From Minisyncoccota bacterium (lineage in GTDB: Bacteria > Patescibacteriota > Minisyncoccia > Phycocordibacterales > CAJQIN01): DNA of 60,053 nucleotides. Below are positions 417-60,053 of the stretch, piece by piece. Numbering within the stretch: position 1 is the first letter of the stretch; every line of letters starts with the position of its first letter. A model generated the notes under the pieces. The model did not search any database. It was not told where the DNA came from and saw only the letters and a program-made list of their open reading frames with translations. The position numbers and the translations under genes are program-made. Where the stretch lies: positions 98,890 to 158,942 of the forward strand of contig CAJQIN010000012.1 of NCBI GenBank assembly GCA_905478465.1, in the 5' to 3' direction.

Positions 417-546
417 ATATAATTTTATTTATTGTGTTTAATATCGCTTTTGAATAGCGATACTTCAGGAGAGATCGACATCCAACATTGATATAACTAT
501 CATAGCATTATCAAATACTCCTGTCAAGGATACATGCCACAAGTAC

Positions 547-583
547 AAAAACAACACATACCTTTTAGGTATGTGTTGTTTTT
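547..583. terminator. Intrinsic terminator-like inverted repeat
   Basis: aaaaacaacacatacct / aggtatgtgttgttttt, 17-bp arms with A/T tails, just downstream of the 605-1279 gene. Confidence 0.8.
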
Positions 584-604
584 AAAATACACTCTCCGAA
601 GAAA

Positions 605-1279
605 TTATTTCTTCTTTTTTGCAGCCACCTTCTTCACAACTTTCTTTGTAGTAGACTTTTTTACAACTTTCTTTGTAACAGCCTTCTTTACAGCCTTTTT
701 AAGAGCTCCTTTCTTCACTGTCTTTTTCACAACTTCTTTTTTAGCAACTTTTGTAGGTTCTTTTTTTTGAGTATCAGCAACCACCTCCTTATTCACAGTT
801 TTTTTAGTGTCTGGAGTAGAAATATTATCTTTGATTATTTGAGTTAGTGTCTCAATCTTTCCTGCAACAATATCAAGCTGCTTCTTAATATCATCAATAC
901 GTCGATCAGATACTTGTGGTTGTGCAGCTGGTGCCCGCCCAAAGTCTTTTCGCGGTCGTTCGTTTGAACGTCCACCTGATCGATTATCTGAGTGTCCATG
1001 AGATTCCCCTTCTCTCATTTGAGAGAAACAGTCACTACAGTACACGGGCTTACTTCCATTTGGTCGAAACGGTACTTCACACTTCTGATGACACCCGTCA
1101 CATGTTGCACCAAACATTTCAGCAGGTCCTGAGTCTCGCCCCCCAGAACGCCCACCACTAAAACGAGAACTCTTACCGCCAAAACTTGGTCGACTAAATT
1201 CCCTTGATCCTCCTCTGTTATTATTAAATCCTCCTTCTCGTCTTTCTCCTCCTCCACGTGGTCCATTAAATTTTGCCAT
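605..1279 (-). CDS. CxxC-x17-CxxC zinc-ribbon protein with RGG-rich N-terminus and Lys-rich histone H1-like tail
   Basis: CDGC...VPFRP..SKPVYCSDC motif; KKVVKK/KKAVKK repeats at the C-terminus. Confidence 0.85.
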   Translation of the reverse strand: MAKFNGPRGGGERREGGFNNNRGGSREFSRPSFGGKSSRFSGGRSGGRDSGPAEMFGATCDGCHQKCEVPFRPNGSKPVYCSDCFSQMREGESHGHSDNRSGGRSNERPRKDFGRAPAAQPQVSDRRIDDIKKQLDIVAGKIETLTQIIKDNISTPDTKKTVNKEVVADTQKKEPTKVAKKEVVKKTVKKGALKKAVKKAVTKKVVKKSTTKKVVKKVAAKKKK

Positions 1280-1394
1280 TGAAATATTAATTAATTAGTT
1301 ATTCGTATCTAAGACACATAGTATACACAGTTTTAAAATAATAGATACCACTTTTTGACATTAGGCAAATAAGTACCTTGAATTAACCAGCACG

Positions 1395-1983
1395 TTAAAG
1401 GGCGGGATCAAATAGTTTTCGTAATTTCTCTTTTTTATTTAAACACATCTTAGCTTCAAATAATTCGGGTAATACCTCTTTTTCAGAAAATATTGGACTT
1501 GTTGATATTTCAAGAAATTCATCAAATGTAACAGGCTTTAATATAATTTTTTCTCCGCCATCGAGATTCAGATCTGCAACTTTTTTGAGACCCTTAGCAA
1601 TAAATGTATAGACAACCCAGTCAATCTTACTAGCTGGATGAGTTGCATTCCATAAAATAAACTCTTCTGCCTCATAACCAGTCTCTTCCAACAACTCTCT
1701 TTTTGCTCCAGCTAGAATTTCTTCTCCAGGATCTACCCTTCCTCCAGCTGCCCCCACAAAAGGCTCCTTCCCTGGTTGTTCTTGTTCAGTTAAAAGTATT
1801 TTTCCGTCAGGTAGAGTAGGAAATACTACAACTGTATCTGGTCTGGTCAGTTTCTCAAAAGTTGTCATTGTCCCATCAAACAACTCCTGTTCCCACTGAA
1901 TACGCATCAAACATTATTCCTGAAAATACCTTTTGCGCATGTTCTGGAATAGGTTGTTTAGATTTTGGTCGTTCAATGTTCAT
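1395..1983 (-). pseudogene. NUDIX hydrolase (ADP-ribose pyrophosphatase-like) with an apparent 1-nt frameshift near 1899
   Basis: Nudix box GGRVDPGEEILAGAKRELLEETGY. The upstream frame from ATG 1983 (MNIERPKSKQPIPEHAQKVFSGIMFDAY) joins QWEQELFDG only if one T is removed from GCG TAT T CAG TGG. Confidence 0.7.
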
Positions 1984-2017
1984 ATAAATATAACAATTAA
2001 TTTTATACTGAAAATTT

Positions 2018-2497
2018 CTATATTTTTAAATATAACACTTTATTCCCCATCTTTTCTATACACATCCTGAAATCACCAGACTCCAAAACAACTGTTTGTG
2101 TATTTATGTTCGGATGAAATCCAAGATGATCATTATCTAAGAGTTCTATATCTAAAACAAAAACAACCTCTTTTTCTGCATCATTCAAAAGACCAAATGG
2201 AGATACTGAGCCACGGGTAACATTAAGATATTTTTTAAGCCTTTCTTCACTAGCAAAACTCAGATCTTTTTCATCAAGTTTTTCTGCCAGATCATCTAAA
2301 CTTATCTGCTTAAAAGCAGGTAATGTTACAAGATAATGCTTATTACCCTTTCTATTTCTTAAAAAGAGATTCTTATTTTCACCAAATTCTATACCTTGAT
2401 AAACATCTCGTGCGTCATTTACACCAAATACAGCCACATGCTCATGGAGTTTATATGGAATACTATATTGTTTCAAAAAATCAAAAACATTTTCCAT
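2018..2497 (-). CDS. YbaK/ProX (PrdX-like) aminoacyl-tRNA deacylase
   Basis: KNLFL, GSVSPFGL and FHPNINTQT motifs; ATG 2497 (MENVFDFL) chosen as start. Confidence 0.85.
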   Translation of the reverse strand: MENVFDFLKQYSIPYKLHEHVAVFGVNDARDVYQGIEFGENKNLFLRNRKGNKHYLVTLPAFKQISLDDLAEKLDEKDLSFASEERLKKYLNVTRGSVSPFGLLNDAEKEVVFVLDIELLDNDHLGFHPNINTQTVVLESGDFRMCIEKMGNKVLYLKI

Positions 2498-2604
2498 TTT
2501 AAAAGTATACCAGACAAGCTTGCAAACAGAATTGAAAGTATGTATTGTTTTATTAAACACTGCACCTTGTTACTATTTTTGTATCTTTTACAAGAGAATT
2601 TATA

Positions 2605-2913
2605 ATGTTCCCAAGCAATTTAATCGAAGCTGTAAATCTGCTTGTTGATGTTTGTGAAGAATTAACAGATATAGAATATCCGTACACATGTATCACAGAC
2701 AAAACCAATCTGGCAATTTTTAAAATTGGAATGAGTACGCTTGGCCAAGGTGAGCTTCTAGAATTCAATCACCTTATTAAAAAATATTTCGGGGTCTCTT
2801 TCTCCAAAGACGAAATTCAAAACGTCACCAACCCTGGAACACTAACTCTGCGAGAAATTGCCCAGAGTTTACTCAAAAAACTAGAAAACTCTCCAGAACA
2901 ATCGGCTGCTTAA
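2605..2913 (+). CDS. Hypothetical protein, acyl-carrier-protein-like by eye
   Basis: 102-aa ORF with its own downstream terminator; helix pattern resembles ACP (GMSTL..E...KYFGVSFSKDEI...TLREI). Confidence 0.5.
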   Translation: MFPSNLIEAVNLLVDVCEELTDIEYPYTCITDKTNLAIFKIGMSTLGQGELLEFNHLIKKYFGVSFSKDEIQNVTNPGTLTLREIAQSLLKKLENSPEQSAA

Positions 2914-2930
2914 CCAATTACGAAGCAACC

Positions 2931-2967
2931 ATAAAGGCGTACGATGTATTACATCGTACGCCTTTAT
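2931..2967. terminator. Bidirectional terminator-like perfect palindrome
   Basis: 18-bp perfect arms ataaaggcgtacgatgta / tacatcgtacgcctttat with a 1-nt spacer, between convergent genes. Confidence 0.75.
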
Positions 2968-3008
2968 CACACCCCCCAACTCTTTCATACAAATAATTAT
3001 TTATATTT

Positions 3009-4406
3009 TTATAACAATCCCGCCACAAACTGATATACAAAATACCAATAAAATATTCCACTTGCTATCAAAACCGTGTTAGTTATCCAACCCGGACGAA
3101 TAAACTGCGGTAATTTGAAGTTATTCAGGTATAACAACAAAGGTATGTAGATTGCCATAACTAATCCCCCCAAAACAGATGTAATTATTAATAGAGTAAA
3201 AGGTTGTTGAAATGGCACAAGAAGAGCACTGATAACAACAAAGGCAAACATCAATCCATAATACAAATGATGTATGGACACTCTGTTAGCCCACATAAAC
3301 ACAGGAATCATTTTTCCGACTCTTGAATTAGTATGAACAATATCTGAAACAATTCTTGTCAAAGCATCAAGTACTGTCCACATAACAGAGAAGAGCATTA
3401 GATATGCCATAAAAAGATACAATTTCTCTCCCCATATCCCCCAAGAATCACTAAAAATTTTTGCTTGTGCTGAGACAAGGTCTAACCCTTCTGGAATAAT
3501 TCCCTGGGGTGAAAGTACGGCATAAGCATTCACAGATAATAGAAGTAGCGTAACAAGACCCAGAAGCCAAAAAATAATACCCTGATCGATCCTCACGAAG
3601 GTCATCCAACCCTTCCAATGTTTTCTATTCTCAGGAGTATCTTCAAAGGTATACCCTGTTACAGAAACAGCTTCTGCTTTTCCTGAAATTGGATTCGCAA
3701 TACGCCCAACATACTTTGCCATACCCAGTTGTTTATCTCTGTACCATAATGAAATGGCCAAATTCAGCATTCCACCAGCACCAGCGAATACTATAGCCCC
3801 AAGTAATAATGACCAATCAGCATTATCTGGAACATATCCAAAATTAATAACACCCTGGAACATTTCAATAAGCAATGTTCCATTCAAGTTCTTGAAACTA
3901 ATAATAATAAGTAACAGAAAGAAAGTTGGTACGGTAAATTTTAGTGTTTTTTCCAAGACTCCATAGGCAACTTTTCCTGAAAATGTAATAGCAAGTACCA
4001 AAGCAAGAGATAACCATGACCAGACCATGTAACTTCCAAAACCAAACAAAGAAGAGAGTATTGTACCAAGTGCAGCAGCCCAAGCAGGCCATACATACAG
4101 CAAAATAGCAGCAAAAAACCAGAAAACAGGAGAGAAGCTCAATATCCGTGCAGACGACGTGAAGAAACTTTCTCCTGTTGCAAGTGCATGACGTGCAACC
4201 TCTTGGTTTATAAAATACTGTATTGTAATTCCAATCAATCCTAACCACAGAATAGCTAGACCATACTTAGATACTAAATGAGGCCACAAAATAAGTTCAC
4301 CTGTACCCATTGCCATTCCAACAACAACGATACCCACACCTATGGCTTTCTTCCAATTAAAAGGTGGTGGAAGTTCTCTATATTCTAACGATGGAATTGT
4401 ATTCAT
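3009..4406 (-). CDS. Nramp-family (APC superfamily) divalent metal transporter-like protein
   Basis: About 11 hydrophobic segments; LPPP..W...IG.G.......GTGELILWP N-terminal signature. Confidence 0.75.
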   Translation of the reverse strand: MNTIPSLEYRELPPPFNWKKAIGVGIVVVGMAMGTGELILWPHLVSKYGLAILWLGLIGITIQYFINQEVARHALATGESFFTSSARILSFSPVFWFFAAILLYVWPAWAAALGTILSSLFGFGSYMVWSWLSLALVLAITFSGKVAYGVLEKTLKFTVPTFFLLLIIISFKNLNGTLLIEMFQGVINFGYVPDNADWSLLLGAIVFAGAGGMLNLAISLWYRDKQLGMAKYVGRIANPISGKAEAVSVTGYTFEDTPENRKHWKGWMTFVRIDQGIIFWLLGLVTLLLLSVNAYAVLSPQGIIPEGLDLVSAQAKIFSDSWGIWGEKLYLFMAYLMLFSVMWTVLDALTRIVSDIVHTNSRVGKMIPVFMWANRVSIHHLYYGLMFAFVVISALLVPFQQPFTLLIITSVLGGLVMAIYIPLLLYLNNFKLPQFIRPGWITNTVLIASGIFYWYFVYQFVAGLL

Positions 4407-4431
4407 ATTACCTTTATTTAATTACTAACTA

Positions 4432-4794
4432 TTATAAACAACCTTGCGCTTTCAAAAACTCAGTCACACTTGGAGAATCTCCGGCAATTATCTCATCCAC
4501 CCTCGAACTACCAATTTTTTCTCGAAAACACTTTTCTTGTTCAGGGGTAAACTGGGAAGGTATATCTGCAGGATCTATACCGATAGTTCTAAGTGTCTTC
4601 TCTTGGGAGTCCGAAAGAATCGGATTTACATCCATCAAGTCAGCAGAAATAGAAGAAGTGTCTTCTTGCTCCGTATTAAAAATAATAGACCGTATATTAA
4701 AAGGATTTCGTATCAAGATATACCCTACTAAAAGTATTATGATGAAAAAAATAATACCCAGCATTATGAAAAAAAATTTAAAAAAAGACTTCAT
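4432..4794 (-). CDS. Membrane-anchored hypothetical protein with a two-Cys C-terminal domain
   Basis: Single N-terminal TM helix; C...GSSRVDEI..G..P...E..KA..C pattern. Confidence 0.7.
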   Translation of the reverse strand: MKSFFKFFFIMLGIIFFIIILLVGYILIRNPFNIRSIIFNTEQEDTSSISADLMDVNPILSDSQEKTLRTIGIDPADIPSQFTPEQEKCFREKIGSSRVDEIIAGDSPSVTEFLKAQGCL

Positions 4795-4841
4795 TACCCA
4801 TAAGTATACCAGAAAGAATTATTCAAAAAAATACAAAACCT

Positions 4842-5843
4842 CTAAACATCTTCCTCTCCAGGCTCAAAATACTTTTGTTTTTGCATCTTAAAATACCCTT
4901 GTCGTAATTTTTTCAACTTATTCTTTTTTTGCCTTTCTAGTTCTTTATTATTTTTTGCATCAAGACGAACCTTTTCTTCTTTTAGTTTCAAATATGAATT
5001 ATATCGCTTTTGTTCCAACACCCCTGAATCAAGTGCTTTTTGTATAGCACAACCTGCACTTTTCTGATGATCACAATCACGAAACTCACACAAACTCAAT
5101 AATTCTTCAATATCAGAAAATATATCCACATTAACATCCTCGATAAGTCCAAGTTCTCGCATACCAGGAGTATCAATCAAATATCCTCCTGAAGGCAAGG
5201 TAAACATCTGTCGAGATGTTGTAGTGTGTCTTCCGCGACTATCATCCTCTCGAACCTCTTCTGTCACCTGAACATTCTGTGACAATAACCAATTTGTCAT
5301 TGTTGATTTACCCGAACCAGAAGATCCTAATAAAACTGTAGTAATATCTTTTTTAAAATATTCAAGTACTTTTTCCATATTCAAACCCGTTACAGAACTA
5401 ACTGCATGTACAGGATTATCTGGAAATCTAGATAAAACTTGTTGAACAAACTCCTCTGGATCAGAAACAATGTCGGCCTTATTTAGTAATATAACGGAAT
5501 CAATACCACTCTGTTTAGCAAGTATCACATATCTCTCAAGGCGATTTAAATTAAAATCACCATCAAGCCCTACCACAATACAGATCAAATCAATATTTAC
5601 AGCAATAACTTGTGGCTCAGCATTCCCAGAAGATTTTCTTACTATCTCTGTCTTTCGAGGAAGAATACTTTCTATAGTTACTTGGCCTTCAGAGTTGGGT
5701 TCATATACAACATAATCACCCACTTTAGGATATTGATTATCTTTAGTATGAAATTTTCCCCTAACCACTCCAATATACTCCTTACCATCATCAAAAATAA
5801 CGTAGTTTGTCTTATGTTCTTCTATAACTCTTCCTGTATGCAT
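4842..5843 (-). CDS. rsgA: Ribosome small subunit-dependent GTPase A
   Basis: Circularly permuted GTPase (NKAD, GSSGSGKS, DTPG), GRHTT, Zn site CEFRDCDHQKSAGC. Confidence 0.95.
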   Translation of the reverse strand: MHTGRVIEEHKTNYVIFDDGKEYIGVVRGKFHTKDNQYPKVGDYVVYEPNSEGQVTIESILPRKTEIVRKSSGNAEPQVIAVNIDLICIVVGLDGDFNLNRLERYVILAKQSGIDSVILLNKADIVSDPEEFVQQVLSRFPDNPVHAVSSVTGLNMEKVLEYFKKDITTVLLGSSGSGKSTMTNWLLSQNVQVTEEVREDDSRGRHTTTSRQMFTLPSGGYLIDTPGMRELGLIEDVNVDIFSDIEELLSLCEFRDCDHQKSAGCAIQKALDSGVLEQKRYNSYLKLKEEKVRLDAKNNKELERQKKNKLKKLRQGYFKMQKQKYFEPGEEDV

Positions 5844-5933
5844 TAAATGCAGTATAACAAATATATAAAAATACTAATAAAAAAATCAAAAAAACATGAA
5901 CTATCCACCCAAAACTATACTAGAAAAATTTAT

Positions 5934-6383
5934 TTAATCGATTGTTCTAGTTTCTCTGAGAAGAGACTGATATTCTTGTGGAAAATTAAAATCTTTGGCA
6001 GCACTTATCATAAGACCTAGGTAGTGTCTGGATGGCTTCAGAGAATAACTACTTTTTTCCACAACCTCATAAGTCTGAGCCACATATTCCTGACCATCTT
6101 CACTGATTACTTTAACAGTAAATCTTTTGTATTTATTTGGATGTTTCTCATAATCATCTAGCCTAAAAATATCACTTTCATCTACCTCATACAAAAGACC
6201 CCACACAGAATCACTCTTACTCTTTACAACATCAGCACATCCACATTTTCTTTTAGGTGAAAAGATAGTAAAATCAATTATATAATTTTTCAGCAGAGCT
6301 TTTCTAATAAACCTTGAGTTAGGACACCTCTCTTTCATCTGACCCCTATCCATATTTGATCCATATGCAAAATAATATTTCAT
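5934..6383 (-). CDS. Gamma-glutamylcyclotransferase (AIG2-like) family protein
   Basis: YFAYGSNM N-terminal motif, VWGLLY, LDDYEK..Y. Confidence 0.85.
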   Translation of the reverse strand: MKYYFAYGSNMDRGQMKERCPNSRFIRKALLKNYIIDFTIFSPKRKCGCADVVKSKSDSVWGLLYEVDESDIFRLDDYEKHPNKYKRFTVKVISEDGQEYVAQTYEVVEKSSYSLKPSRHYLGLMISAAKDFNFPQEYQSLLRETRTID

Positions 6384-6392
6384 AACCACAAG

Positions 6393-6430
6393 TATAGCAA
6401 AAACACCCCTTATGGGGTGTTTTTGCTATA
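6393..6430. terminator. Terminator downstream of tRNA-Gln
   Basis: 17-bp arms tatagcaaaaacacccc / ggggtgtttttgctata. Confidence 0.8.
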
Positions 6431-6484
6431 TTAATTAAACTATGACTATTGGTATACACTCCGTTCTCTGAATGTATCTCAAAC

Positions 6485-6559
6485 TGGCTGCCCGACAAGG
6501 ACTCGAACCTCGATTTCCTGGACCAAAACCAGGCGTCACTACCATTAGACGATCGGGCA
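6485..6559 (-). tRNA. tRNA-Gln(UUG), CCA encoded
   Basis: Cloverleaf; anticodon arm CCTGG-TT-TTG-GT-CCAGG; GGTTCGAGTCC T-arm. Confidence 0.95.
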
Positions 6560-6560
6560 A

Positions 6561-7250
6561 TTAATTTATATTATCACATATTCCCTCAATCCAGCCCATA
6601 ACTTTTCGATTGAGATCTGTACTCCTGCTAACGCGTATTCTTAACAATCCCCAATAACTATCACCTGTATTTTTTCGGACAGTTTTAGGATTATGTTTTT
6701 TGTAATACACGTAAGTAATTGCACTCTCAGGAAATCCCGTTACCTGAGACCAATTATTTTTTATATCTTTTACACGACATTTTGCTGTCTCATGTACATA
6801 CAAAGACAACTTTATCCTATCTCGTGTAACTAGCACTATATCAATTAACCACTTGATATACAACTTTATCATTCTAGGGTCCGAATTCCCAAAATCTAAC
6901 CCTGAAGACGGTCTGAGCTTTTTCGCTTTTGACCCCTCGGCCCAATAAAGTGCTGTACCGATAAGCCTCAACTCTTGCTTTGAAAGATTTTCAATATCTT
7001 TCTTTGCCTGAATAATGATTTTTTGCGTAGATTCTATTCTTTGTTTTTGTCGAGCTTCAGCACCTCTTTTTTGTGCGGCAATACGTTTTTGTGTGAGTTT
7101 TTGTTTCTGTGGTTTTGCAAGATTAACCTCCAAGAACCACAGAGAAAGTGTTGATTTTGCAACAGAAACAACTGATAAAATCTCTGAATAAGTTTTACCC
7201 GCCTTTCTCAAAGCAACTGCTTTCTTCTTTTCTTCAATTTTAGGTATCAT
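6561..7250 (-). CDS. HTH plus LAGLIDADG-like domain protein
   Basis: N-terminal HTH (GKTYSEILSVVSVAKSTLSLW); LIGTALYWAEGSK helix followed by LDFGNSDPRMIKLYIKWL, typical of LAGLIDADG-like folds. Confidence 0.6.
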   Translation of the reverse strand: MIPKIEEKKKAVALRKAGKTYSEILSVVSVAKSTLSLWFLEVNLAKPQKQKLTQKRIAAQKRGAEARQKQRIESTQKIIIQAKKDIENLSKQELRLIGTALYWAEGSKAKKLRPSSGLDFGNSDPRMIKLYIKWLIDIVLVTRDRIKLSLYVHETAKCRVKDIKNNWSQVTGFPESAITYVYYKKHNPKTVRKNTGDSYWGLLRIRVSRSTDLNRKVMGWIEGICDNIN

Positions 7251-7294
7251 GGTAGGATATACTTATCTTACCATGATACCTACCGCTAAGAACT

Positions 7295-8326
7295 CTACCC
7301 TTTTGAAATATCAATAATCGCAAGTTCCAAAGGGAGCTCCGGAAGAAAAGCTATTTTAATTTCATCATATGCCCGAAGAAGGGTCAGCAGAGTTTGTGAA
7401 TTATATTCATAGGTACTATTTTTTGAAATTTCCAAAAGAAATTCAAAATCATCTTCAGATGTTTGCACCTTAATAACATGCTCCATCTTTGGCGCATAAC
7501 GAAGCAACAAAAGAAAACGCATTCTCTGTAAAACAAGTTTAAAAAACACCTTCATTTCTACATTTGCATCAACTGCTTTTTTAACAGCCTCAATTCCCTT
7601 TTCTGTATCCTTTTCTACAATACCTCTAATATACTGATGGATAAGAGTTGTTTTAGGCGCACCCGTAATCCTCTCTACCTCCTCTACTGTAATGGTCTTA
7701 TCTACAGATGAAGAAATAACTTTCTGTAACATACCAAGAGTGTCTCTAAACGAACCATCACCAAGAAGAGCAATGAGATCTGCAGAAGATGTCTCAAAAG
7801 TATACCCCTCTTTTTCTGCCACACGCTGTGTCATTAAAGAAAGAGTTTTCTGATTTGGTTTTTTAAAATTATGAACCTGACAACGAGAAACTATAGTTTC
7901 TGGAAGCTTTTCTATTTCTGTTGTTGCTAGAACAAAAATCACATGCGCAGGTGGCTCTTCCAGAGTTTTCAAAAATGCATTGAATGCTGATTTTGAAAGC
8001 ATATGCACCTCATCAATAATATAAAATTTGTATGTTGAATGGAAAGGTAGAGTACTCACAGACTCCTTGAGTTCACGAATATCATCTACCCCAGTATTTG
8101 ATGCGGCATCTATTTCATAGACATCACTTTCATTTGTTTTCAGGGCTTTAGCAAAAATACGTGCAATAGATGTTTTCCCTGTTCCACGTGTACCCGAAAA
8201 AAGATACGCATGTGCTATTTTCTTTGTTTCGATAGCACCCTCAAGTGCCTGAACAACTTGTTCCTGACCGATAACATCTTTAAATGTTTCCGGGCGATAC
8301 TTTCTATACAATACAGTTTCTGACAT
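7295..8326 (-). CDS. dnaX: DNA polymerase III subunit gamma/tau (short form)
   Basis: LYRKYRP, GTRGTGKTS, IIDEVHML, TIVSRC. Confidence 0.95.
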   Translation of the reverse strand: MSETVLYRKYRPETFKDVIGQEQVVQALEGAIETKKIAHAYLFSGTRGTGKTSIARIFAKALKTNESDVYEIDAASNTGVDDIRELKESVSTLPFHSTYKFYIIDEVHMLSKSAFNAFLKTLEEPPAHVIFVLATTEIEKLPETIVSRCQVHNFKKPNQKTLSLMTQRVAEKEGYTFETSSADLIALLGDGSFRDTLGMLQKVISSSVDKTITVEEVERITGAPKTTLIHQYIRGIVEKDTEKGIEAVKKAVDANVEMKVFFKLVLQRMRFLLLLRYAPKMEHVIKVQTSEDDFEFLLEISKNSTYEYNSQTLLTLLRAYDEIKIAFLPELPLELAIIDISKG

Positions 8327-51985: not shown

Positions 51986-52249
51986 TTAATTATCAAATCT
52001 GTAATCAGTCACCTCATCAAGATTAACTCCATAATATTTTTGATGTACCACCTTTTGATCTTCAAAAATAGCATCATCCCAATTAAGATCCAGAAATTTT
52101 ACACCTTCACGAACTTTTTCTTCAGAAGTAGACTCTATCTCAAGAACCATTGGAATTTTTGGCCAATAATTTATTTCAAACAAAATACCATCTTTTTTAT
52201 ACCTGACAATTTTCTTTTCTTGGTATCGTACCAGAGGAATACCAGGCAC
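51986..52249 (-). pseudogene. 3' fragment of a CYTH (class IV adenylate cyclase-like) gene
   Basis: YQEKK..Y....FEI..WP.IP..LEIE...EE.V C-terminal CYTH pattern; no N-terminal ExExK half and no credible start. Confidence 0.6.
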
Positions 52250-52250
52250 T

Positions 52251-52808
52251 CCTAAAAATTCTGGTCAATGGTACAACGGAGCACATGAGCCATTAATTAC
52301 TAGGGAGCTCTTTGATTTGGTCCAAACGAACATGAAGAGTAATATTCTCGAGCCAAGGTCAAAACAAAAAGAGTTTGCGTTTACCAAAATAATGACTTGT
52401 GGACTTTGTGGTTCAGGTATTACTGCGGATGAAAAGTTTAAGAAGCAGAAGAATGGTAATGTCCACCGTTACGTTTATTACAAATGTACTCGCACCAGAG
52501 ACCCAAATTGTGATTGTGGTTTTATTAATGAAAACGACCTTATCTCACAGCTGCAGAATCTGATTAATGATATCGATATTAAAGTAGTACCAATGAGAGA
52601 CAAAATTACTGCTGAAGTGAAGCGGTACAAACAATTTCAACAAATGCTACTCGGAGACGAGATCCAGATTGTAATAAAAGATATCGATATCAGAGACTAC
52701 GCTAAATTCCTTCTTCGGGAAGGTTCCCTTGATGAGAAACGTGAACTCCTTAGTTGTTTAAAAAACAGTATTTTTTTAAACAAAAAACATATTCGAATTG
52801 CTCAATAA
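52251..52808 (+). pseudogene. 3' fragment of a large serine recombinase (end of Recombinase domain plus Zn ribbon)
   Basis: In-frame PKNSGQWYNGAHEPLIT..LF upstream of the ORF-track start; CGLCG...YYKC Zn ribbon; catalytic resolvase domain missing. Confidence 0.75.
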
Positions 52809-52830: not shown

Positions 52831-55800
52831 TTAAAGAACTGCTTTTAACTCTTCCTTATAATCATCGGGGAGGTTTATTTCTTTTAGTGTGAAAATTTCA
52901 TCAATCCTTCCTTGAAGCGTACGTTTTTGATCAGGCGGTGCAGAGTTCATGATATTCAGTAGACCTTGGTATATCTTTTCATGCTTCTTATAGCGGGGTT
53001 TAGTTTCAATAATGAGGTCAACTAAAGCATTGAGAGATACAACCGAACGGTGTCGTGAAAAGAAATCAAATACTTGTTCAGCTATTTGTATTTCTGTATC
53101 AGTCATTTTGTATTTTCTCGCAAGTAAGAAATATTTCTTTGTAACCAGAGACCACCTTTGAGGTTCAGATTGCTGGCCCATAAAAGTAATGTGGTCGCCA
53201 ACCAGCTCTGTTATTGCTCCTTTGTCGAGTAGTCCACAATCAGTGAAAATATCCAACAATGTAATACCTGTTTGCTGGATTTCAGCATTTGGGTTACGCA
53301 CTCTGTCTTTTACTGCATTAAATGCTGGCGTTCTCAAATCGTCACCATCTTGTTTGGTGTGTGCAATCAGGTTGGCCAGCTCAATGACTAGGTCGTGCCT
53401 GTTCTGTACGTGATGCTTCATTCTGCTAAATGAAGCGTTTGCGACCTTGTTGGCGTCAAAGTAGTTCTCTCTAGTTTGAAGCCATTGCACAACGTCCAAG
53501 CAGTTGTCTGTGTCAACGATTTTGCGACAAGCTAAAGTTTCAGCCACTTCTCGGTTTACCAAGCCAGCTTCTATAAGTTTTAACAAGGCCCCCTCTTCAC
53601 GGGTGACTCTTTCTCGCAAAATGTTCATGTGTGTATCAAGTAAGATGTCTTTATCTGTACTCGGTATGTGCTTCAAAAACTCAACAACTTCCTCAATTGG
53701 CACAGTTTTAAGTTGGTTGTCTATTATTGTCTTCATCTCACCGTCTAGTTCTGTCTTGTACGTATAAAGACGGGCATAAAGTGCGAGTAAGAAATCTATG
53801 ATTAACACTTTCTCTTTGCTTTCGTTTCTGTTATAGATCTGTGTCCACTCAGCAGCGAGCTGATGAACCAAGCCAGCATATTGTTGGTCACATTCATTCA
53901 CAAACCGCTTTATTGTTGTGAGTATATTTTCTAGAACCTCTTTCTTGGTCACTGACGAAGCATTGTCACCCAATGAAATAAATTGAGTTAAAATCGCCTT
54001 TTTATTTCTTGATGTATTTTCTGTTAGAGCAATCTTGCGTTGTACCCGCAATGCTTCGTCTTCTTGCGGTGAGAAATCGTTTAGGCTGATTGAGGTTATC
54101 AGAGCATCTTGAACTTGCTGTGGCAGTTCAAAAAGTCCTTTCATATTTTCGAGTGACTCGATTTCCTCGTAAAGAGTTAGGTTTTTCAGTGTTTCCTTCA
54201 GTCTTTTAATGGCTTCTGCATCTTTGTCTTCACTGAGTAGGATGGTGAGATATTTTGTCAATTCTAACTTGTAGTCAGGTATTTCAATCCTAGAGTCAAC
54301 GTCTGAATTGTTGCCCTCAAACACTTGGCTAAGCAAGTCAATCAGTCCATCAAACAGACGTTGTCTGTGAATACTATTAAGACCATTGGCCAAGAGGTAG
54401 TCTGCATTTTTTAGTTCAAATAGTTCGAGTCCGCCGAACTTGCTTTCATTTAGTATCAAATCCACAAATCTTTGAGTTTGCGTGTGGTGCATTTGTAGTT
54501 TGTGGGATTTTGCATACGCAATATAAGAGTGAATGCTGTTTCGAACGATAGAGTCATTAACTGTTTTATCAAGCTTGCTTAAAAGCATTCGCTCGAAGTT
54601 ATCTTTTTGATTTGCTTCTACGACTGAAAATATCTTCGCAAACGTATCAAGGTCTTCTTCCGATAGTGCTTCTAACATCTGTGTGCTACCAGAGATAGAA
54701 GTTGCCCCGTTTGGTGTTTTTAAGTATATAAATGGCTCAATATCGCTAGTCAAGACACTTTCAGTTGTTTTGAGGAAAGTGTACAACTCAGCATCCTTTA
54801 GCAACTCAGAGAAATATTTGTTTGGCACTTTCCCAGAGCTAACAATATGTTCCTGAAGATTGACCCAGTAATGTGGGTGATGTTTAAGCTCGTCAAATAG
54901 ATCTCGAAAATCTCTCTGGAATATAAGTACTTTGGCAAGCATTGCGATATTTCCCGACACCACGCCCTTTGGTTGCAGGGCGGGAGTGGGTGAGTTCTCA
55001 CGAGCAAGTGCGAGTTTATAAGCGGTCTGAAGTGAGTTTACAAACTGAATGATTTTTCGAGGATTGTCCTTGTGTGCTTGTGCAATAACTGAAATGAGAC
55101 TATTACTTCCCGGCACGTTACTTTTATTAAGTGCTTTTCTGGCAAAATCTTCGAGATCGTCGCTATAAATTGGCGGGATGCGAAGATTGACGTTGAAGAA
55201 CTTTCTCAAAAATTCGTCAATAATTTTATGTTCCTTGGGTTCATAACTGTAGTAGTTTCTCAGATGTCTAATGACAGCGTCTTCGTCACATTGCACAATG
55301 AAAGCAACTTTTTTATGACACACGTACGTTTTGATCGCAGTCAAAAGCTCAACAGCTTTTTCGTCAGAGACTCGATCAAGGTTGTCAATGATAATTACGA
55401 TTCTGTCGTATCCGTGCTGACTGCTCTCGATGACGTCCTTGTAGATAGATGAAAACTCTTCGATACCTTTCACAGGGTCTTTTGAATAGGTTACCTTCTT
55501 TTGCTCAAAGTACTTACCAAAAAAATCGAGAGCAGATGGGGTAAGAAAGGCAAAGAAACTTGTTCCTGCCACCAATGTAATTATCCATCGTTTATAGAGA
55601 AACAGCACTTCAGCAGGTGATAGTCCGCCAGGAACATAACTCACTAAATAGGCTACGAGAAGTGCTAAAAAGACTATGAGTGTGTAGAAAGGTAGAAACT
55701 TATTAAGAACAATTTCTCCAGTGGGTACAGTCTCAGTTTTCCTCAGATACATCCTCTCAACATCATGATTTTTAACACGGAGCTGTTGAGAGACAGTTGT

Positions 55801-56097
55801 TAAAAATTCCCTACGAAATGATCCTGCTTCATGTTTCCAAACATCGAAAGTTATAACCTTCACTTTTTTGTTCTTTAAGTAGTTTCGTTCCAGTGAGTCA
55901 CCAATACTGCTTTTTCCAGTACCCCAACCACCCAATAGTCCGATGGTCAAGTCGCTAGCATCTACCTTTCCACTCCACTCATCAATCATTTCTTGAAGTA
56001 TCGAAACAATATGAACGTGACCAAAATCATCGGCTTCATGTAAATTGAGAACCTTATCTTCAATTATCTTTATAGAGTTGTCTTTTTTTGACGACAT
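52831..56097 (-). CDS. KAP-family P-loop NTPase with two TM helices and a long helical C-terminal region
   Basis: Walker A GGWGTGKS, two TMs between the Walker motifs, Walker B IVIIIDNLDR, FLRKFFNV.LRIP; ATG 56097. Confidence 0.88.
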   Translation of the reverse strand: MSSKKDNSIKIIEDKVLNLHEADDFGHVHIVSILQEMIDEWSGKVDASDLTIGLLGGWGTGKSSIGDSLERNYLKNKKVKVITFDVWKHEAGSFRREFLTTVSQQLRVKNHDVERMYLRKTETVPTGEIVLNKFLPFYTLIVFLALLVAYLVSYVPGGLSPAEVLFLYKRWIITLVAGTSFFAFLTPSALDFFGKYFEQKKVTYSKDPVKGIEEFSSIYKDVIESSQHGYDRIVIIIDNLDRVSDEKAVELLTAIKTYVCHKKVAFIVQCDEDAVIRHLRNYYSYEPKEHKIIDEFLRKFFNVNLRIPPIYSDDLEDFARKALNKSNVPGSNSLISVIAQAHKDNPRKIIQFVNSLQTAYKLALARENSPTPALQPKGVVSGNIAMLAKVLIFQRDFRDLFDELKHHPHYWVNLQEHIVSSGKVPNKYFSELLKDAELYTFLKTTESVLTSDIEPFIYLKTPNGATSISGSTQMLEALSEEDLDTFAKIFSVVEANQKDNFERMLLSKLDKTVNDSIVRNSIHSYIAYAKSHKLQMHHTQTQRFVDLILNESKFGGLELFELKNADYLLANGLNSIHRQRLFDGLIDLLSQVFEGNNSDVDSRIEIPDYKLELTKYLTILLSEDKDAEAIKRLKETLKNLTLYEEIESLENMKGLFELPQQVQDALITSISLNDFSPQEDEALRVQRKIALTENTSRNKKAILTQFISLGDNASSVTKKEVLENILTTIKRFVNECDQQYAGLVHQLAAEWTQIYNRNESKEKVLIIDFLLALYARLYTYKTELDGEMKTIIDNQLKTVPIEEVVEFLKHIPSTDKDILLDTHMNILRERVTREEGALLKLIEAGLVNREVAETLACRKIVDTDNCLDVVQWLQTRENYFDANKVANASFSRMKHHVQNRHDLVIELANLIAHTKQDGDDLRTPAFNAVKDRVRNPNAEIQQTGITLLDIFTDCGLLDKGAITELVGDHITFMGQQSEPQRWSLVTKKYFLLARKYKMTDTEIQIAEQVFDFFSRHRSVVSLNALVDLIIETKPRYKKHEKIYQGLLNIMNSAPPDQKRTLQGRIDEIFTLKEINLPDDYKEELKAVL

Positions 56098-56128: not shown

Positions 56129-56174
56129 GAAGCATTCAAAAACAGCCTCATTTGAGGCTGTTTTTGAATGCTTC
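56129..56174 (-). terminator. 22-bp perfect inverted repeat downstream of the att-like tRNA fragment
   Basis: gaagcattcaaaaacagcctca-tt-tgaggctgtttttgaatgcttc. Confidence 0.7.
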
Positions 56175-56190
56175 TCGTGCTAGCACGAAT

Positions 56191-56201
56191 TGGTGACCCC
56201 A
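56191..56201 (-). repeat. att-like site matching a tRNA 3' end (TGGGGTC-A-CCA; tRNA-Glu-like)
   Basis: Minus strand reads TGGGGTCACCA then a 14-bp palindrome and a terminator, as after a tRNA gene, but there is no 5' tRNA half. Confidence 0.5.
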
Positions 56202-56327
56202 ATTAGAACGAATTGGAACCAGATAGTAAAGGAGTTGGTGGAGTGGAGGAAATTTAGACCTGAGCAAAGGATTGTATACGTATCAAGATAGGATTGAAAA
56301 ATAATTTCATAGGTATAAGGTGTAGTT

Positions 56328-56819
56328 ATGAGTATCCCAATAACAATTAATTTTTTTAGGGAGATCGAACTGTATCAGGAGCTTAAGACTCTTGATAAAA
56401 AATTTAAGAAAGACAAGGCTGCTGGATGGAAAGTTTGGAATACAGAAAAAGCAATACTAAGTTGGTGTGCAGACGACACATCTTTGGCAAACAAAAGAAC
56501 TTCGCAGAAAATTAGAAGAGCTGTCCTAAAGGAAGGTAGTTTAAGTCTAGCTGAAATTATCAAGGAGCACGATATTCATCTGACTGTCCCCATGGAAAAC
56601 CTAATAAAAAGAGGTTTCGCCGAGGGGAATAGAGAAGAAATTATTCTTACTAAAGAAGGCGTTCTAATGGGCACCGTTATCAATAAATCAAAAAAAATAT
56701 CTGGGAAGATTCATTACGAACTTTTCTATTGGCTGACTTGGGCAGCAATAATATCTGGATCTTTTATAGTTATACTTAACGCATTAGAAAAACTTTCTAG
56801 GTTGATACCTTGGACATAA
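56328..56819 (+). CDS. Hypothetical protein, possible winged helix plus C-terminal TM
   Basis: MENLIKRGFAE...I.LTKEG wing-like motif; hydrophobic C-terminal helix. Confidence 0.55.
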   Translation: MSIPITINFFREIELYQELKTLDKKFKKDKAAGWKVWNTEKAILSWCADDTSLANKRTSQKIRRAVLKEGSLSLAEIIKEHDIHLTVPMENLIKRGFAEGNREEIILTKEGVLMGTVINKSKKISGKIHYELFYWLTWAAIISGSFIVILNALEKLSRLIPWT

Positions 56820-56837
56820 TTAATAAGAAAAAGAACT

Positions 56838-57749
56838 ATGAATATAAAAATAAAAATGTTAAGTGTCATTATGGTGGTATTCATGCTTCCACAGATCGTT
56901 TTTGCTGCTTGGTGGAATCCTCTTAGTTGGTTTGATAATTGGAACTTTTTATTGTCAGAAAGAGAGAGCGAAACCGAGATTCTTGAACAAAGAGTTGCAG
57001 AGCTTGAAGATAAGCTGTTGGAAGAAAAAACTACTGAGGAAAATCTAACCAAAGAAGAGGTTGTGTCTGAAACTTCAGAAGAGGCTTCTGTAAAAAATAC
57101 TGAACCCATAGCACCTAGCGAACCAGATGTGTCATTGATTGTTGCTGCCTATTACCAAGAAACAGCTCTTGGACCAATATCTTCTTCTATTGACTTATTT
57201 AGAGCTTATTCAACGGAGCTTAATAGATACATACAAGGTATTCCAGAGGTGGCTAACAACTTAGAAACAATGGTTCTGATTGGTTTCGATGGAGATGCTG
57301 ATGGCCTTATAGATTTCATAGATACGTGGGAAGATGATTACTTAAGAGACTTTCAAGATCTCAAAAACATAGTTGACGGCTATATACAGGAAGTCGAGGA
57401 ACAAAAAAACTTATTGATAAGAGTGAGTGGTGATTTAAGAACGAAATATATACCACTAAGCCAAGAGTCAAAATATTCCCAAGAGATAGACACATATCAT
57501 AATCAAATCGATGTTTGGATTGAAGATATAAAAACCGCACAGAGCAGACTAACGAACAGATTTATTGAAGAAAAGGATTATATGAATGAGGCAGTTTATG
57601 AAGCCTCAGTAAATAGAGTGTCTGTGTCTATACCTTCTTTACCAACCTATTCTCCTCCACCCCCAAGTATCAGCTCTTACAAACCACCGATAACTACTTA
57701 TTGTGACAACTATGGAAATAGCATTTCTTGCACATCATATTCTTGGTAA
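56838..57749 (+). CDS. Secreted coiled-coil protein with WWNPLSWF motif
   Basis: Signal peptide ending VFA|A; WWNPLSWF; long amphipathic helices; Pro/Ser linker; C-terminal C..YGNSI.C. Confidence 0.7.
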   Translation: MNIKIKMLSVIMVVFMLPQIVFAAWWNPLSWFDNWNFLLSERESETEILEQRVAELEDKLLEEKTTEENLTKEEVVSETSEEASVKNTEPIAPSEPDVSLIVAAYYQETALGPISSSIDLFRAYSTELNRYIQGIPEVANNLETMVLIGFDGDADGLIDFIDTWEDDYLRDFQDLKNIVDGYIQEVEEQKNLLIRVSGDLRTKYIPLSQESKYSQEIDTYHNQIDVWIEDIKTAQSRLTNRFIEEKDYMNEAVYEASVNRVSVSIPSLPTYSPPPPSISSYKPPITTYCDNYGNSISCTSYSW

Positions 57750-57751
57750 AA

Positions 57752-58141
57752 ATGCCTAGGCCCACTAAACTAACAGAGCTTGCGGTCAAAAAACTAGAGG
57801 AGGCTTTTGCACTTGGTTGCACAGACCAAGAAGCCTGTGTTTATGCCAATATTTGCAAACAAACACTGTATAATTATCAGGCAAAAAATAAAGAGTTTTT
57901 AGACCGAAAAGAGCTGCTTAAATCTACACCTTTCCTAGAGGCGAGGATGGCTGTTATAAGGAATTTTAAGAAAGACCCGAGACTTGCTTTGAGATTCTTA
58001 GAAAGAAGAAAGAGTGACGAGTTTAATACTAGGCAAACAATAAATTCTGACCGAAAGGTTGAGATCACTTTTGATAGTGCTTTTAAAGAAAGTAAGAAAA
58101 AATCTGATATGGCAATAAGAGAATATTTGAGTAAGACTTGA
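57752..58141 (+). CDS. Phage terminase small subunit-like HTH protein
   Basis: MPRPTKLT N-terminus; homeodomain-like G.TD.EAC.YA.I...TLYNY; A...LERR...EF C-terminal pattern. Confidence 0.55.
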   Translation: MPRPTKLTELAVKKLEEAFALGCTDQEACVYANICKQTLYNYQAKNKEFLDRKELLKSTPFLEARMAVIRNFKKDPRLALRFLERRKSDEFNTRQTINSDRKVEITFDSAFKESKKKSDMAIREYLSKT

Positions 58142-58175
58142 AAAACTAACCCAAAAAGGATAGATTTGGTTAATA

Positions 58176-58427
58176 ATGAACGCCACTCATTCAGCCGACA
58201 TTAGCTCGGCAGACAACAAAAAATTGATAGTCTTAGAATTCTTAAAGGAAGAATGGGATCTTTCCCCTAAAAATAGTGGTGACGTGTTGATAAAAATCTC
58301 TGGAGAACGTGCCGCTATGCTAATGCGAATGACGGGCCTAGATTATTATCAACTTGATCGTGTCTTAGAAAGCTTTAAAGAAGATGGTCTTATTATGAGA
58401 CACGAATTTATTAACCCAGCAATGTAA
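58176..58427 (+). CDS. Hypothetical protein, possible winged helix
   Basis: 83-aa ORF; QLDRVLESFKEDGLI helix-wing pattern. Confidence 0.5.
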   Translation: MNATHSADISSADNKKLIVLEFLKEEWDLSPKNSGDVLIKISGERAAMLMRMTGLDYYQLDRVLESFKEDGLIMRHEFINPAM

Positions 58428-58429
58428 CC

Positions 58430-58864
58430 ATGTTTAATAACCTCTATATTGATTTTCCTAGTGATTTTGAAGAAAGATATGAAGAATACAAGGAAGGCAT
58501 TTTGGGCGTGACTAGTATCCAAGAAAAAGAGGTAAACGTATCCTACAATCACGTTACAGGTATAGGTTATATAAACTCTAAAAAATTTAGATTCACAGAC
58601 GGGACGTCCGAATACAGGATTTTTGAAAAATTATACAAAAGCATTAACTGTAAAGTTTCAAGGTATGACGTGCTTGAAGCAATCAAATTTTACGAAGATG
58701 GAGAAGATATTGATCCTGCAAGAAAAACAGCCGAAACAGAGGCAATAAACAAAGTTGCAAAGAGCTTAAGGTCTAAAACAGGATTAAACACAGAACACCT
58801 TGTTGTAAACAATGGAAATATGACCCTAGTGGGCGAGAATAAACCAGATAATACCCAAACGTAA
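58430..58864 (+). CDS. Hypothetical protein with OmpR-like C-terminal winged HTH
   Basis: EYRIFEKLY...KVSRYDVL...AINKVAKSLRSK pattern. Confidence 0.55.
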   Translation: MFNNLYIDFPSDFEERYEEYKEGILGVTSIQEKEVNVSYNHVTGIGYINSKKFRFTDGTSEYRIFEKLYKSINCKVSRYDVLEAIKFYEDGEDIDPARKTAETEAINKVAKSLRSKTGLNTEHLVVNNGNMTLVGENKPDNTQT

Positions 58865-58895
58865 CCCAAACTACACCTACATACGAAACCTTTTT

Positions 58896-58923
58896 AAAAA
58901 TAGACTAATAAGAGTCTATTTTT
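58896..58923 (+). terminator. Terminator
   Basis: aaaaatagact / agtctattttt. Confidence 0.6.
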
Positions 58924-59023
58924 TGTTTTTACAGACAATAGAACCTTTAATCTAGCAAGCCTGCTAAGGCGTTCGGCAGACTTGCTCTTGATTAGAGCCT
59001 TATAAGCATTAATAAAAAAAATA

Positions 59024-59269
59024 ATGAAAGCAAAAATTACTTATGTCGGCGGCTTAGAGAGAAGTAGGAACGGCGGCGTTTATAAGCTCGTTTCTCTACA
59101 GATACTTGAAGGGTCTGTATCAAGCGGACACGTTTATCTAAACCCAGAAAACAGGAATTATTCCAATTGGGAAAGCGTCCTCGAAGAAGGAAACTTACTA
59201 ACAGGTCTTGTTTGGAGAAATAAGAAAAAAAGGCTTATTGACGGAGATTCACCAGTAGAAAATTTGTAG
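59024..59269 (+). CDS. Small beta-rich hypothetical protein (OB-fold-like by eye)
   Basis: 81-aa ORF with A-rich leader; MKAKIT...SRNG...RNYSNW. Confidence 0.6.
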   Translation: MKAKITYVGGLERSRNGGVYKLVSLQILEGSVSSGHVYLNPENRNYSNWESVLEEGNLLTGLVWRNKKKRLIDGDSPVENL

Positions 59270-59271
59270 AA

Positions 59272-59463
59272 GTGATTAATCTTGAGTCGTTTAGAAAAAC
59301 TGACCCTGAACTAGGAGGTCTCAGCAATAAGGAAGTCGAAGAGATTCGACAGTATTTCTATGACTTCGGACAAATTATTTTTGAGCAATGGTGTGAAGAT
59401 AAGTTCGGTTCCAAAAATCCCCTTGGGTCTATTCACAATAAAGATAAGGATAGTATGCTTTAA
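59272..59463 (+). CDS. Small helical protein immediately upstream of the recombinase
   Basis: 63-aa ORF with GTG start, 2 nt after the previous stop and 2 nt before the LSR ATG. Confidence 0.6.
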   Translation: MINLESFRKTDPELGGLSNKEVEEIRQYFYDFGQIIFEQWCEDKFGSKNPLGSIHNKDKDSML

Positions 59464-59465
59464 AC

Positions 59466-60053
59466 ATGGACCAGAAAGAACTAAAAACAGGGATAATCTA
59501 TTGTCGAGTTTCCTCCTTAGAACAGGTTGAGAACACTAGCCTAGAATCACAAGAAGCTCGCTGTAGAGAGTATGCTGAAAAAGAAAACATAAAAGTTCTT
59601 AAAGTATTTATAGAAAAAGGAGAATCAGCAAAAACAGCCGATCGGACTAAGTTTCAAGAAGCACTACAATACTGCGGTTTAAAAAAGAGCTCTGTAGACA
59701 AATTTATCGTGTATAAACTTGACCGTTTCGCACGCAATCAAATAGACCATGTAACAACAAGAGCAATACTAACCAAGTGCGGAACATCTCTAGTCTCTGC
59801 TACCGAACCTATAAACGATGAACCCATTGGCCGACTTATGGAGGGCGTTTTATCAAGCTTTGCAGAATTTGATAATAATGTCAGAACGGAAAGATCAAAA
59901 GGAGGAATGTATGAAAAAGTTAAGCAAGGAATTTGGCAGTGGGGCGCTCCAATTGGGTATTACCGACCACACAAGGGATCTAACCTTGAAATAGATAAAG
60001 ACAAGAAATTACTTATACACTTGGCTTTTGTGGAATACGCCAAGGGAGGTCAC
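59466..60053 (+). CDS. Large serine recombinase, N-terminal catalytic part (runs off the window)
   Basis: Manual translation: IIYCRVSS.EQ (catalytic Ser), E.GESAKT.DR..F, YKLDRFARN, FAEFDN..R.ER..GGM...G.W.W.AP.GY; open to the window end. Confidence 0.95.
   Translation, partial: MDQKELKTGIIYCRVSSLEQVENTSLESQEARCREYAEKENIKVLKVFIEKGESAKTADRTKFQEALQYCGLKKSSVDKFIVYKLDRFARNQIDHVTTRAILTKCGTSLVSATEPINDEPIGRLMEGVLSSFAEFDNNVRTERSKGGMYEKVKQGIWQWGAPIGYYRPHKGSNLEIDKDKKLLIHLAFVEYAKGGH

Follow-up and report, generated by a model that had tools for sequence, protein, structure and literature searches.

The window analysed here is a 60,053-nt stretch of the genome of a Minisyncoccota bacterium (G000:C12:98890-158942), the end of which is also the end of its contig. 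Close to that end it contains the beginning of a gene for a large serine recombinase (LSR) and, upstream of it, a short frame without a start codon that opens on a tRNA-like sequence. An initial annotation had proposed that an integrative element extends from this point to a tRNA-Glu beyond the window, that the LSR gene reads into that tRNA antisense, and that excision would join the gene to the short frame. On the basis of the comparisons described below, we consider it highly probable that the attachment site of the element (attP) lies within the coding sequence of its own LSR, at codons 494-496 (L-V-T), and that integration into tRNA-Glu exchanges the C-terminus of the enzyme. The features around the predicted left junction (attL) and the recombinase gene are the following.

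56129-56174, minus strand: hairpin with perfect 22-nt arms, a 2-nt gap and flanking A/T runs, AAAAACAGCCTCA..TGAGGCTGTTTTT
56175-56188: 14-bp palindrome TCGTGCTAGCACGA, between the putative terminator and the att core, in host-side (B-arm) DNA
56190-56199: attL core TTGGTGACCC, antisense of the tRNA-Glu 3' end GGGTCACCAA
56190-56291, plus strand: putative orphan LSR tail frame LVTPIRTNWNQIVKELVEWRKFRPEQRIVYVSR, that is, LVT followed by PIRTNWNQIVKELVEWRKFRPEQRIVYVSR and a stop; it opens as LVTPIRTNWNQIVKELVEWRKF
56200-56220: P' arm of the former attP, containing GAATTGGAACC at 56210-56220
59466-60053, plus strand: first 196 codons of the LSR gene (PF00239, E = 1.2e-34), cut by the contig end

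The palindrome, the terminator-like hairpin, the plus-strand frame and the missing 5' half of a tRNA are all where the initial annotation had placed them, and ARAGORN detects no tRNA in the region of 56190-56201. The tRNA-like 3' end read there on the minus strand had been given 11 bases (56201-56191, TGGGGTCACCA); ten of them do match the 3' end of a real tRNA-Glu, while the eleventh, a G, is on the element side and belongs to the P' arm of attL. The core is thus composed of 5 nt of acceptor stem, the discriminator, CCA and one more nucleotide. A longer tRNA remnant, folding into a T-arm beside the 11-mer, was rejected by eye and with ARAGORN, the last 10 nt alone being derived from a tRNA. 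On one side the junction is bordered by the start of a minus-strand gene for a KAP-family NTPase (52831-56097; PF07693), on the other by eight plus-strand open reading frames (ORFs). Both the hairpin and the palindrome are single-copy in the 927-kb genome. In a genome of the same genus (G002), an unoccupied tRNA-Glu has a terminator hairpin immediately after its 3' end, and the host-side flanks of other attL sites, as seen in the reconstructed attB sites of five other elements, are likewise terminator hairpins located directly after the tRNA 3' end. We therefore take the hairpin at 56129-56174 for the intrinsic terminator that originally served the minus-strand tRNA-Glu, apparently stranded on the host side of attL.

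Since the LSR gene is truncated in the window, its remainder was sought elsewhere. No overlapping continuation was found among the other contigs of the bin by k-mer or BLAST comparison, and longer public assemblies of the same organism were retrieved via exact copies of two element proteins (for example ENA ERZ1764458 NODE_45, 135,944 bp). One such contig, L030, shares 10,054 bases with the window without a single difference and provides two further features.

60945-60954, window-equivalent: attR core, identical to the attL core and 4,755 bp downstream of it
60946-61020, window-equivalent (L030 11923-11997), minus strand: tRNA-Glu(ttc), by ARAGORN

In the longer assemblies, the complete LSR has 502 amino acids and the domains Resolvase, Recombinase and Zn_ribbon_recom, PF07508 and PF13408 matching the full product; its N-terminal catalytic domain has the R-V-S-S serine motif, and in an alignment of 78 sequences the residues Y11, R13, V14 and S15 are invariant. 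Its C-terminus (...KSNLVTLQGIEP, in the longer reading …GDEKSNLVTLQGIEP, each before the stop) lies inside the antisense strand of the tRNA-Glu(ttc): the stop codon is at L030 11951 and the last 29 nt of the gene overlap the tRNA. The tRNA ends in …TAGGGTCACCA, the plus strand of which is TTGGTGACCC, read as L-V-T in the same frame as at 56190, so that the integrated LSR terminates in six tRNA-antisense codons, LQGIEP and a stop. Downstream of the tRNA-Glu lie tRNA-Ser(cga) and then a UbiA gene. The overlap, the frame of the repeat at both sites and the extent of the element agree with what had been proposed from the window alone, and between them the two cores would delimit an integrative element of 4,755 bp, inserted in the tRNA-Glu(ttc) 3' end and reaching from 56190 to ~905 bp past the contig end.

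The 10-mer TTGGTGACCC occurs 7 times in the 927-kb genome, which corresponds to a chance probability of ~0.08 within 20 kb on one strand; the repeat alone is therefore weak evidence, and it is the homology of the tail that bears the weight. That same probability favours an explanation in which the 10-nt repeat and the 33-codon frame coincide by accident and the true left end of the element lies elsewhere, for instance at a recombinase remnant near 52240, where a junction of two truncated genes does exist (~52236-52250). The homologues of the 502-aa LSR (2,153 at E <= 1e-20, from Patescibacteria where a source is named) speak to this question through their C-termini, which were inspected in the 120 closest sequences. 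In 97 of these the protein ends …LV(T/A/P)xx(G/R)(I/F/V)E(P/L)…, which is the acceptor stem and T-arm of a tRNA read antisense, the GIEP of these short forms corresponding to the antisense T-arm GGAATCGAACC. Another 11 are longer (517-555 aa) and continue past LV(T/A) with x(V/I)(G/R)xxWNx(I/L)(V/I)xxLxxWxxF(G/A)xD, as exemplified by P0027 (LVTQVGANWNQLIAELITWSHFGRD) and P0058 (LVALVGRNWDTLLAELNEWHRFGEE). The orphan frame of the window, LVTPIRTNWNQIVKELVEWRKFRPE, conforms to this long-form motif, which bears out the earlier suspicion that it resembles LSR C-terminal tails. A profile built from the 11 long-form tails, with the window excluded, matches the orphan frame with 26.4 bits (E = 2.9e-6 in the scanned regions), and in a six-frame scan of the whole genome the orphan frame is its sole significant match (E = 8.9e-6; next 0.068). 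Such a unique match to an independent profile is hard to reconcile with coincidence, and the remnant at 52236-52808 comes from a different LSR family, whose full-length members have 437-465 aa. The orphan frame accordingly appears to be the C-terminal tail of the LSR, detached by integration; excision would rejoin it to codon 496 and yield a protein of ~526 aa. The second-best genomic match to the profile, at contig C6 3699-3872 on the minus strand (E = 0.068, 14 bits), might be another decayed orphan tail, belonging to another LSR of this genome (C2, C17).

The unsplit gene that this reading predicts is found in relatives. The long-form protein P0027 (528 aa, against ~526 aa for the reconstructed long form) is encoded on two contigs of ~4 kb, L106 and L107. 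L106 (NCBI, 4,154 bp) has a 141-bp terminal overlap, and L107, which was assembled independently (ENA), is circularly permuted relative to it, at 99.97-100% identity; no tRNA is present on either. The two contigs probably represent a circle of ~4.0 kb, or else a tandem junction, with an LSR gene that reads through attP. The natural attP of L106 is aataAATCTAAT-TTGGTGACCC-aagtgggagcgaat-TGGAATCAG, and the attP rebuilt for the window from the left part of attR and the right part of attL is gagAAATCTAAT-TTGGTGACCC-caattagaacgaat-TGGAACCAG. In outline these are AAATCTAAT-TTGGTGACCC-N14-TGGAAT and AAATCTAAT-TTGGTGACCC-N14-TGGAAC, respectively, with the same core, P arm and spacing. An accidental repeat would not be expected to reconstruct the attP of a circular relative, and with the profile match and the different family of the remnant near 52240 this makes the coincidental explanation very improbable indeed. 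That integrated and circular forms encode different C-termini, as the initial annotation had held, finds its counterpart in this circular relative, which carries the long form together with an attP of the same core.

Other contigs display the same relationship in different arrangements. L103 (GCA_043739925.1, JAYUDG010000032.1) contains a tandem at 1347-8089, consisting of a 525-aa long-form LSR with its tail, five ORFs and a 522-aa short-form LSR; the latter ends in an antisense tRNA-Ala, and where the two elements meet, the long gene is intact again. L105, a contig of 18 kb, lacks a tRNA and encodes a long-form LSR alongside relaxase-like, TraG-like and primase genes. A loose attP pattern retrieved four further LVT-tail junctions from unrelated metagenomes and metagenome-assembled genomes (MAGs).

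LSRs as a class recombine attP with attB, and excision needs a recombination directionality factor (RDF). In the free, circular form of the present element, the LSR gene would continue through attP and add ~30 residues, which make up a conserved amphipathic helix. Recombination with attB, which comprises the CCA, the discriminator and the acceptor end of the tRNA, would place the LSR at attR, where it acquires the six antisense codons, and the tail would stay behind as an orphan frame at attL, beside the old terminator of the tRNA. The tRNA-Glu itself would be restored without change, since both sites have the same 10-bp core. For this copy, the predicted junctions are …AAATCTAATTTGGTGACCCCAATTAGAACG… / …GAGAAATCTAATTTGGTGACCCCAATTAGAACGAATTGG… in attP and …GCTAGCACGAATTGGTGACCCTACAGGGAATCG… in attB.

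The arrangement is not confined to the window. At 26 of 29 homologous loci in genomes of the same order, a tRNA, or in one case a tmRNA, lies antisense across the 3' end of the LSR gene, and at two of the remaining three the C-terminus is a tRNA-like antisense peptide. The targets include tRNAs for Glu, Lys, Arg, Ala, Met, Leu, Val and Ser. The family member that ends antisense in a tmRNA gene, L079 (G235:C11, 3007-3393), agrees with recognition of a tRNA-like acceptor and T-arm end. When the tail profile was run over as much as 20 kb of upstream sequence at 20 integrated LSRs, the eight best matches were all on the strand of the LSR, and in each of the five loci that could be paired a short repeat of the cognate tRNA's 3' end lies in front of the orphan tail. 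The five are listed with the distance as the last entry.

L083: tRNA-Lys, core GTGCGCC, orphan tail LVRLVGQNWNQLVYELGGWYQLGRD, 8.9 kb
L085: tRNA-Arg, core TGGTGCCCC, orphan tail VVPLVSECWNQILYEIHNF, 6.7 kb
L086: tRNA-Ala, core GTGGAC, orphan tail VDYVRVHWNQFIKELQEWQQ, 9.9 kb
L087: tRNA-Met, core ATGTTGCG, orphan tail VANVIRDWNSIIASIKEIYEF, 18 kb
L089: tRNA-Met, core GTTGCG, orphan tail VALVGREWNRIIV (decayed), 7.3 kb

Across the att pairs the shared cores have 6-10 nt, and the orphan tails are still open in five of seven integrated copies. A fossil of the same kind is present in G001, a genome of the same genus, where the tail TVTPIRTNWNQIVRELVGWRELEVV and its stop follow GTGACCC at a distance of 2.7 kb from a tRNA-Glu(ttc), with no LSR between them (L120, G001:C53, reverse strand 520-3290). 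The DNA of this tail is 87.5% identical to window positions 56193-56248, compared with ~76% for the adjacent 3' region of trxB. At the level of sequence comparison, these data establish the boundaries of the element, the position of attP in the 3' coding end of the LSR gene, the regeneration of the tRNA, the existence of two C-termini according to state and the generality of the scheme in the family.

Two side observations concern the distribution of such motifs. In L119 (G002:C80, ~3875-3940), a TTGGAACCAA motif occurs upstream of the unoccupied tRNA-Glu 3' end, ~50 nt into the host side, and may be due to chance or be the trace of an earlier element. In L125, a MAG labelled Vicinamibacterales (CAWIBS010000028.1, 1015-1055), an LVT-tail junction …KSGLVTQIFTSWNQMVSWLRQL… is part of a 75-aa frame, which hints at the presence of the architecture, or at contamination, beyond the Patescibacteria, the genome being labelled Acidobacteriota.

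The att sites of the family share a common geometry. Every one of the seven cores combines GT, antisense to the discriminator and C74, with 4-5 acceptor-stem nucleotides. In all seven pairs, the distance from the core to the beginning of the GAACC motif is 11-12 nt in B', the tRNA side, and 16-17 nt in P', the element side, a constant outward offset of 5 bp in P'. In the window, GAATTGGAACC at 56210-56220 mimics the T-arm antisense GGAATCGAACC, is set 5 bp further out from the core and encodes W-N (TGG AAC); with the T of GT as the starting point of the count, the motif occupies 11-21 in B' and 16-26 in P'. In a Listeria LSR, the motif bound by the zinc-ribbon domain (ZD) is 5 bp nearer to the centre in attB than in attP, at bp 11-19 versus 16-24 (Rutherford et al. 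2013, PMC3783163). Because the 5-bp offset matches this geometry, the crossover in the window is probably at or beside the GT at 56193-56194, and the ZD probably reads the GAACC of the universal tRNA T-arm in attB and its copy 5 bp further out in attP. Reading of a universal T-arm would explain how the family could switch easily among tRNAs. By eye, the reconstructed attP also contains a 24-bp near-dyad, TCTAATTTGG TGAC CCCAATTAGA, which is without an obvious counterpart in other family members and is not relied on here.

Several points weigh against the scheme as applied to this copy. Its circular junction and its empty site are absent from the 25 public contigs checked that carry the element genes, all of which are collinear with the integrated form, and the exact attP pattern has no match in JGI metagenome contigs or IMG/VR. 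As the G001 fossil demonstrates, orphan tails can outlast the LSR. Part of the conservation of the tail, namely the near-invariance of W-N, is due to constraint on the DNA, since these codons hold the GAACC copy of attP, and the putative crossover dinucleotide and ZD motif are assigned from sequence. The first of these points could mean that this copy is a fixed, dead remnant that no longer excises, with the orphan frame as a fossil comparable to that of G001: the 25 contigs come from many samples of one time series, differ by 0-5 mismatches and contain the integrated form only. We think this unlikely, given that the 502-aa LSR, the 63-aa ORF that precedes it, the 33-codon tail and all 10 positions of the core are intact, and contigs lacking the junction are weak evidence because assemblers drop rare variants.

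If attP is indeed part of the LSR gene, the question arises of what the displaced tail contributes to the protein. With 17 other tails aligned, positions 12/13, 16, 19, 22 and 26 of the tail are hydrophobic and the intervening positions variable, a conservation pattern that is that of a predicted amphipathic helix (WNxIVxxLxxWxxF). Measured from where the core starts, these hydrophobic positions are at 33-78 nt and hence beyond the ~25-bp half-site of an LSR. In an AlphaFold2 model of P0027, computed with the 78-sequence alignment (mean pLDDT 89.8), residues 504-523 (WNQLIAELITWSHFGRDIIT) are helical with pLDDT ~90, with 11 alignment rows covering the tail, and two long helices, 342-389 and 395-419, agree with a coiled coil inserted in the zinc-ribbon domain. 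A Foldseek search with this model returns serine integrase-att complexes as top matches (E = 7e-19), and also Bxb1, phiC31 and 4kis; the predicted fold is that of a bona fide LSR. The ends of the tails vary (…RIVYVSR, …DISFAV, …SKEYA) and are not ssrA-like.

The exchange of C-termini could nevertheless be a neutral by-product, the tail being a tolerated extension, its conservation derived from the DNA site and the two isoforms behaving alike. The most conserved residues, W-N, coincide with the GAACC motif at its canonical 5-bp offset, the ends of the tails differ in length as well as in sequence, and some orphan tails, such as that of L089, have decayed. We regard this as a serious possibility, albeit one that falls short of even odds: the hydrophobic residues recur with helical periodicity beyond the half-site, with variable residues between them, the helix is modelled confidently in spite of the few rows that cover it, and most of the orphan tails in integrated copies are open. 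That the tail instead modulates recombinase activity, with enzymes of different function made by the episomal and the integrated copies, appears to us about evenly poised. It may be, as the initial annotation had suggested, that directionality or stability is switched by the change of isoform. More tentatively, the C-terminal helix might serve as a built-in sensor of state, the long LSR being made by the episome only and a tail-less enzyme of different activity being made upon integration, for example one that is unable to integrate more copies, is autoinhibited or depends differently on the RDF for excision. If the helix were such a sensor, directionality would be partly encoded by the position of attP in the gene, amounting to a 'soft' version of the suicidal-integrase logic that evolved independently in a family of thousands of serine recombinases reading the tRNA T-arm.

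The closest parallel is provided by the SSV-type (type I, 'suicidal') tyrosine integrases, described as 'so far restricted to archaea' (Badel et al., PMC7253208; PMC8371274). In those of SSV1, pTN3 and pT26-2, as here, attP is inside the recombinase ORF and is translated, many tRNAs serve as targets, and the target is the 3' part of the tRNA with the integrase gene antiparallel to it (PMC7253208), an orientation shared by the 26 loci counted above. Tandem integration is expected to restore an intact gene in both systems; Badel et al. predicted this for suicidal integrases and did not observe it (PMC7253208), whereas the arrangement can be compared with that of L103. The two systems differ in that the archaeal enzymes are tyrosine recombinases whose genes are cut into two inactive halves, while the present one is a bacterial serine recombinase that retains a 502-aa ORF with three Pfam domains and has only ~30 residues displaced. 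Since the cut falls after all recognised domains, a catalytic and DNA-binding enzyme is still encoded after integration. With the canonical LSRs of phages (A118/LI, Bxb1, phiC31, SPbeta) the family has in common the combination of Resolvase, Recombinase and zinc ribbon with coiled coil, and also short att sites with a short shared core and a ZD motif 5 bp further out in attP (PMC3783163), the last being a likeness at the level of sequence in our case. In contrast to codons 494-505 here, however, their attP is outside the integrase ORF and leaves the protein product unchanged, and their targets are protein-coding or intergenic sites, as opposed to a regenerated tRNA 3' end with two isoforms of the recombinase.

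A change of protein by integration is reportedly known from mycobacteriophages, in which Broussard and colleagues are said to have described, in 2013, an integration-dependent immunity with attP inside the repressor gene. There, too, attP is in a coding sequence and integration alters the C-terminus of an element protein, giving two isoforms; the protein, however, is a repressor, the integrase is of the tyrosine type and a degradation tag is removed, whereas here the protein is the recombinase itself and the segment exchanged is an amphipathic helix. The full-text literature searched, a limited library whose silence is no proof, yielded no account of an LSR whose own gene holds attP, nor of LSRs of Patescibacteria that target tRNAs. 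The tail-swapping LSR appears to be a counterpart, in bacteria and so far undescribed, of those archaeal integrases whose own gene contains the site, and with it the principle of placing attP within the gene of the recombinase would extend from archaeal tyrosine integrases to a very large family of bacterial LSRs. Two natural isoforms that alternate with integration state would make directionality control, which is central for LSRs and for genome engineering, directly testable. The data also suggest that one LSR scaffold is retargeted to many tRNA genes, in that the ZD would read the T-arm and the core tracks the acceptor end, a logic useful for the prediction of att sites and for the design of programmable landing sites. 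For mobile elements of Patescibacteria they offer a delimiting rule, namely an LSR that ends in tRNA-antisense codons combined with an orphan WN-helix frame upstream.

The element as delimited has 4.76 kb and comprises eight plus-strand ORFs, which besides the LSR gene are the following.

56328-59269, plus strand: six cargo ORFs of 163, 303, 129, 83, 144 and 81 aa
57752-58141, plus strand: the 129-aa ORF among these, similar to small terminase subunits (TerS; phrog_4102, E = 2.8e-17)
59272-59463, plus strand: 63-aa ORF, stopping 2 nt before the LSR start

A Pfam scan of the six cargo ORFs gave no matches, and no capsid, tail, structural or replication genes were recognised in the element with Pfam. 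It may be satellite-like or mobilisable; we know of no helper phage. A 113-aa ORF of the circular relative L106 has a weak TerS-type match. The 63-aa ORF has counterparts directly upstream of the LSR in L106/L107 (54% identity), L103, L105 and L083 (tblastn), and is a candidate for the RDF or a regulator of this LSR family.

Beyond attL, on the far side of the NTPase gene, lies the gene junction mentioned above, composed of two abutting fragments.

51986-52249, minus strand: 5'-truncated 87-aa ORF, ~200 aa in relatives
52236-52808, plus strand: C-terminal LSR fragment with the end of the Recombinase domain, zinc ribbon and coiled coil

A full split of the SSV type, with the gene at 59466 as the N-terminal part and the fragment at 52236-52808 as the C-terminal one, was considered and rejected, the 59466 gene being complete in the longer assemblies. 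Identification of the 87-aa ORF as a CYTH-domain protein was likewise dropped, being without Pfam support. The meeting of two 5'-truncated genes looks like a scar left by a deletion or by an older element; together with the KAP NTPase, it makes up an island bounded by EngB and attL.

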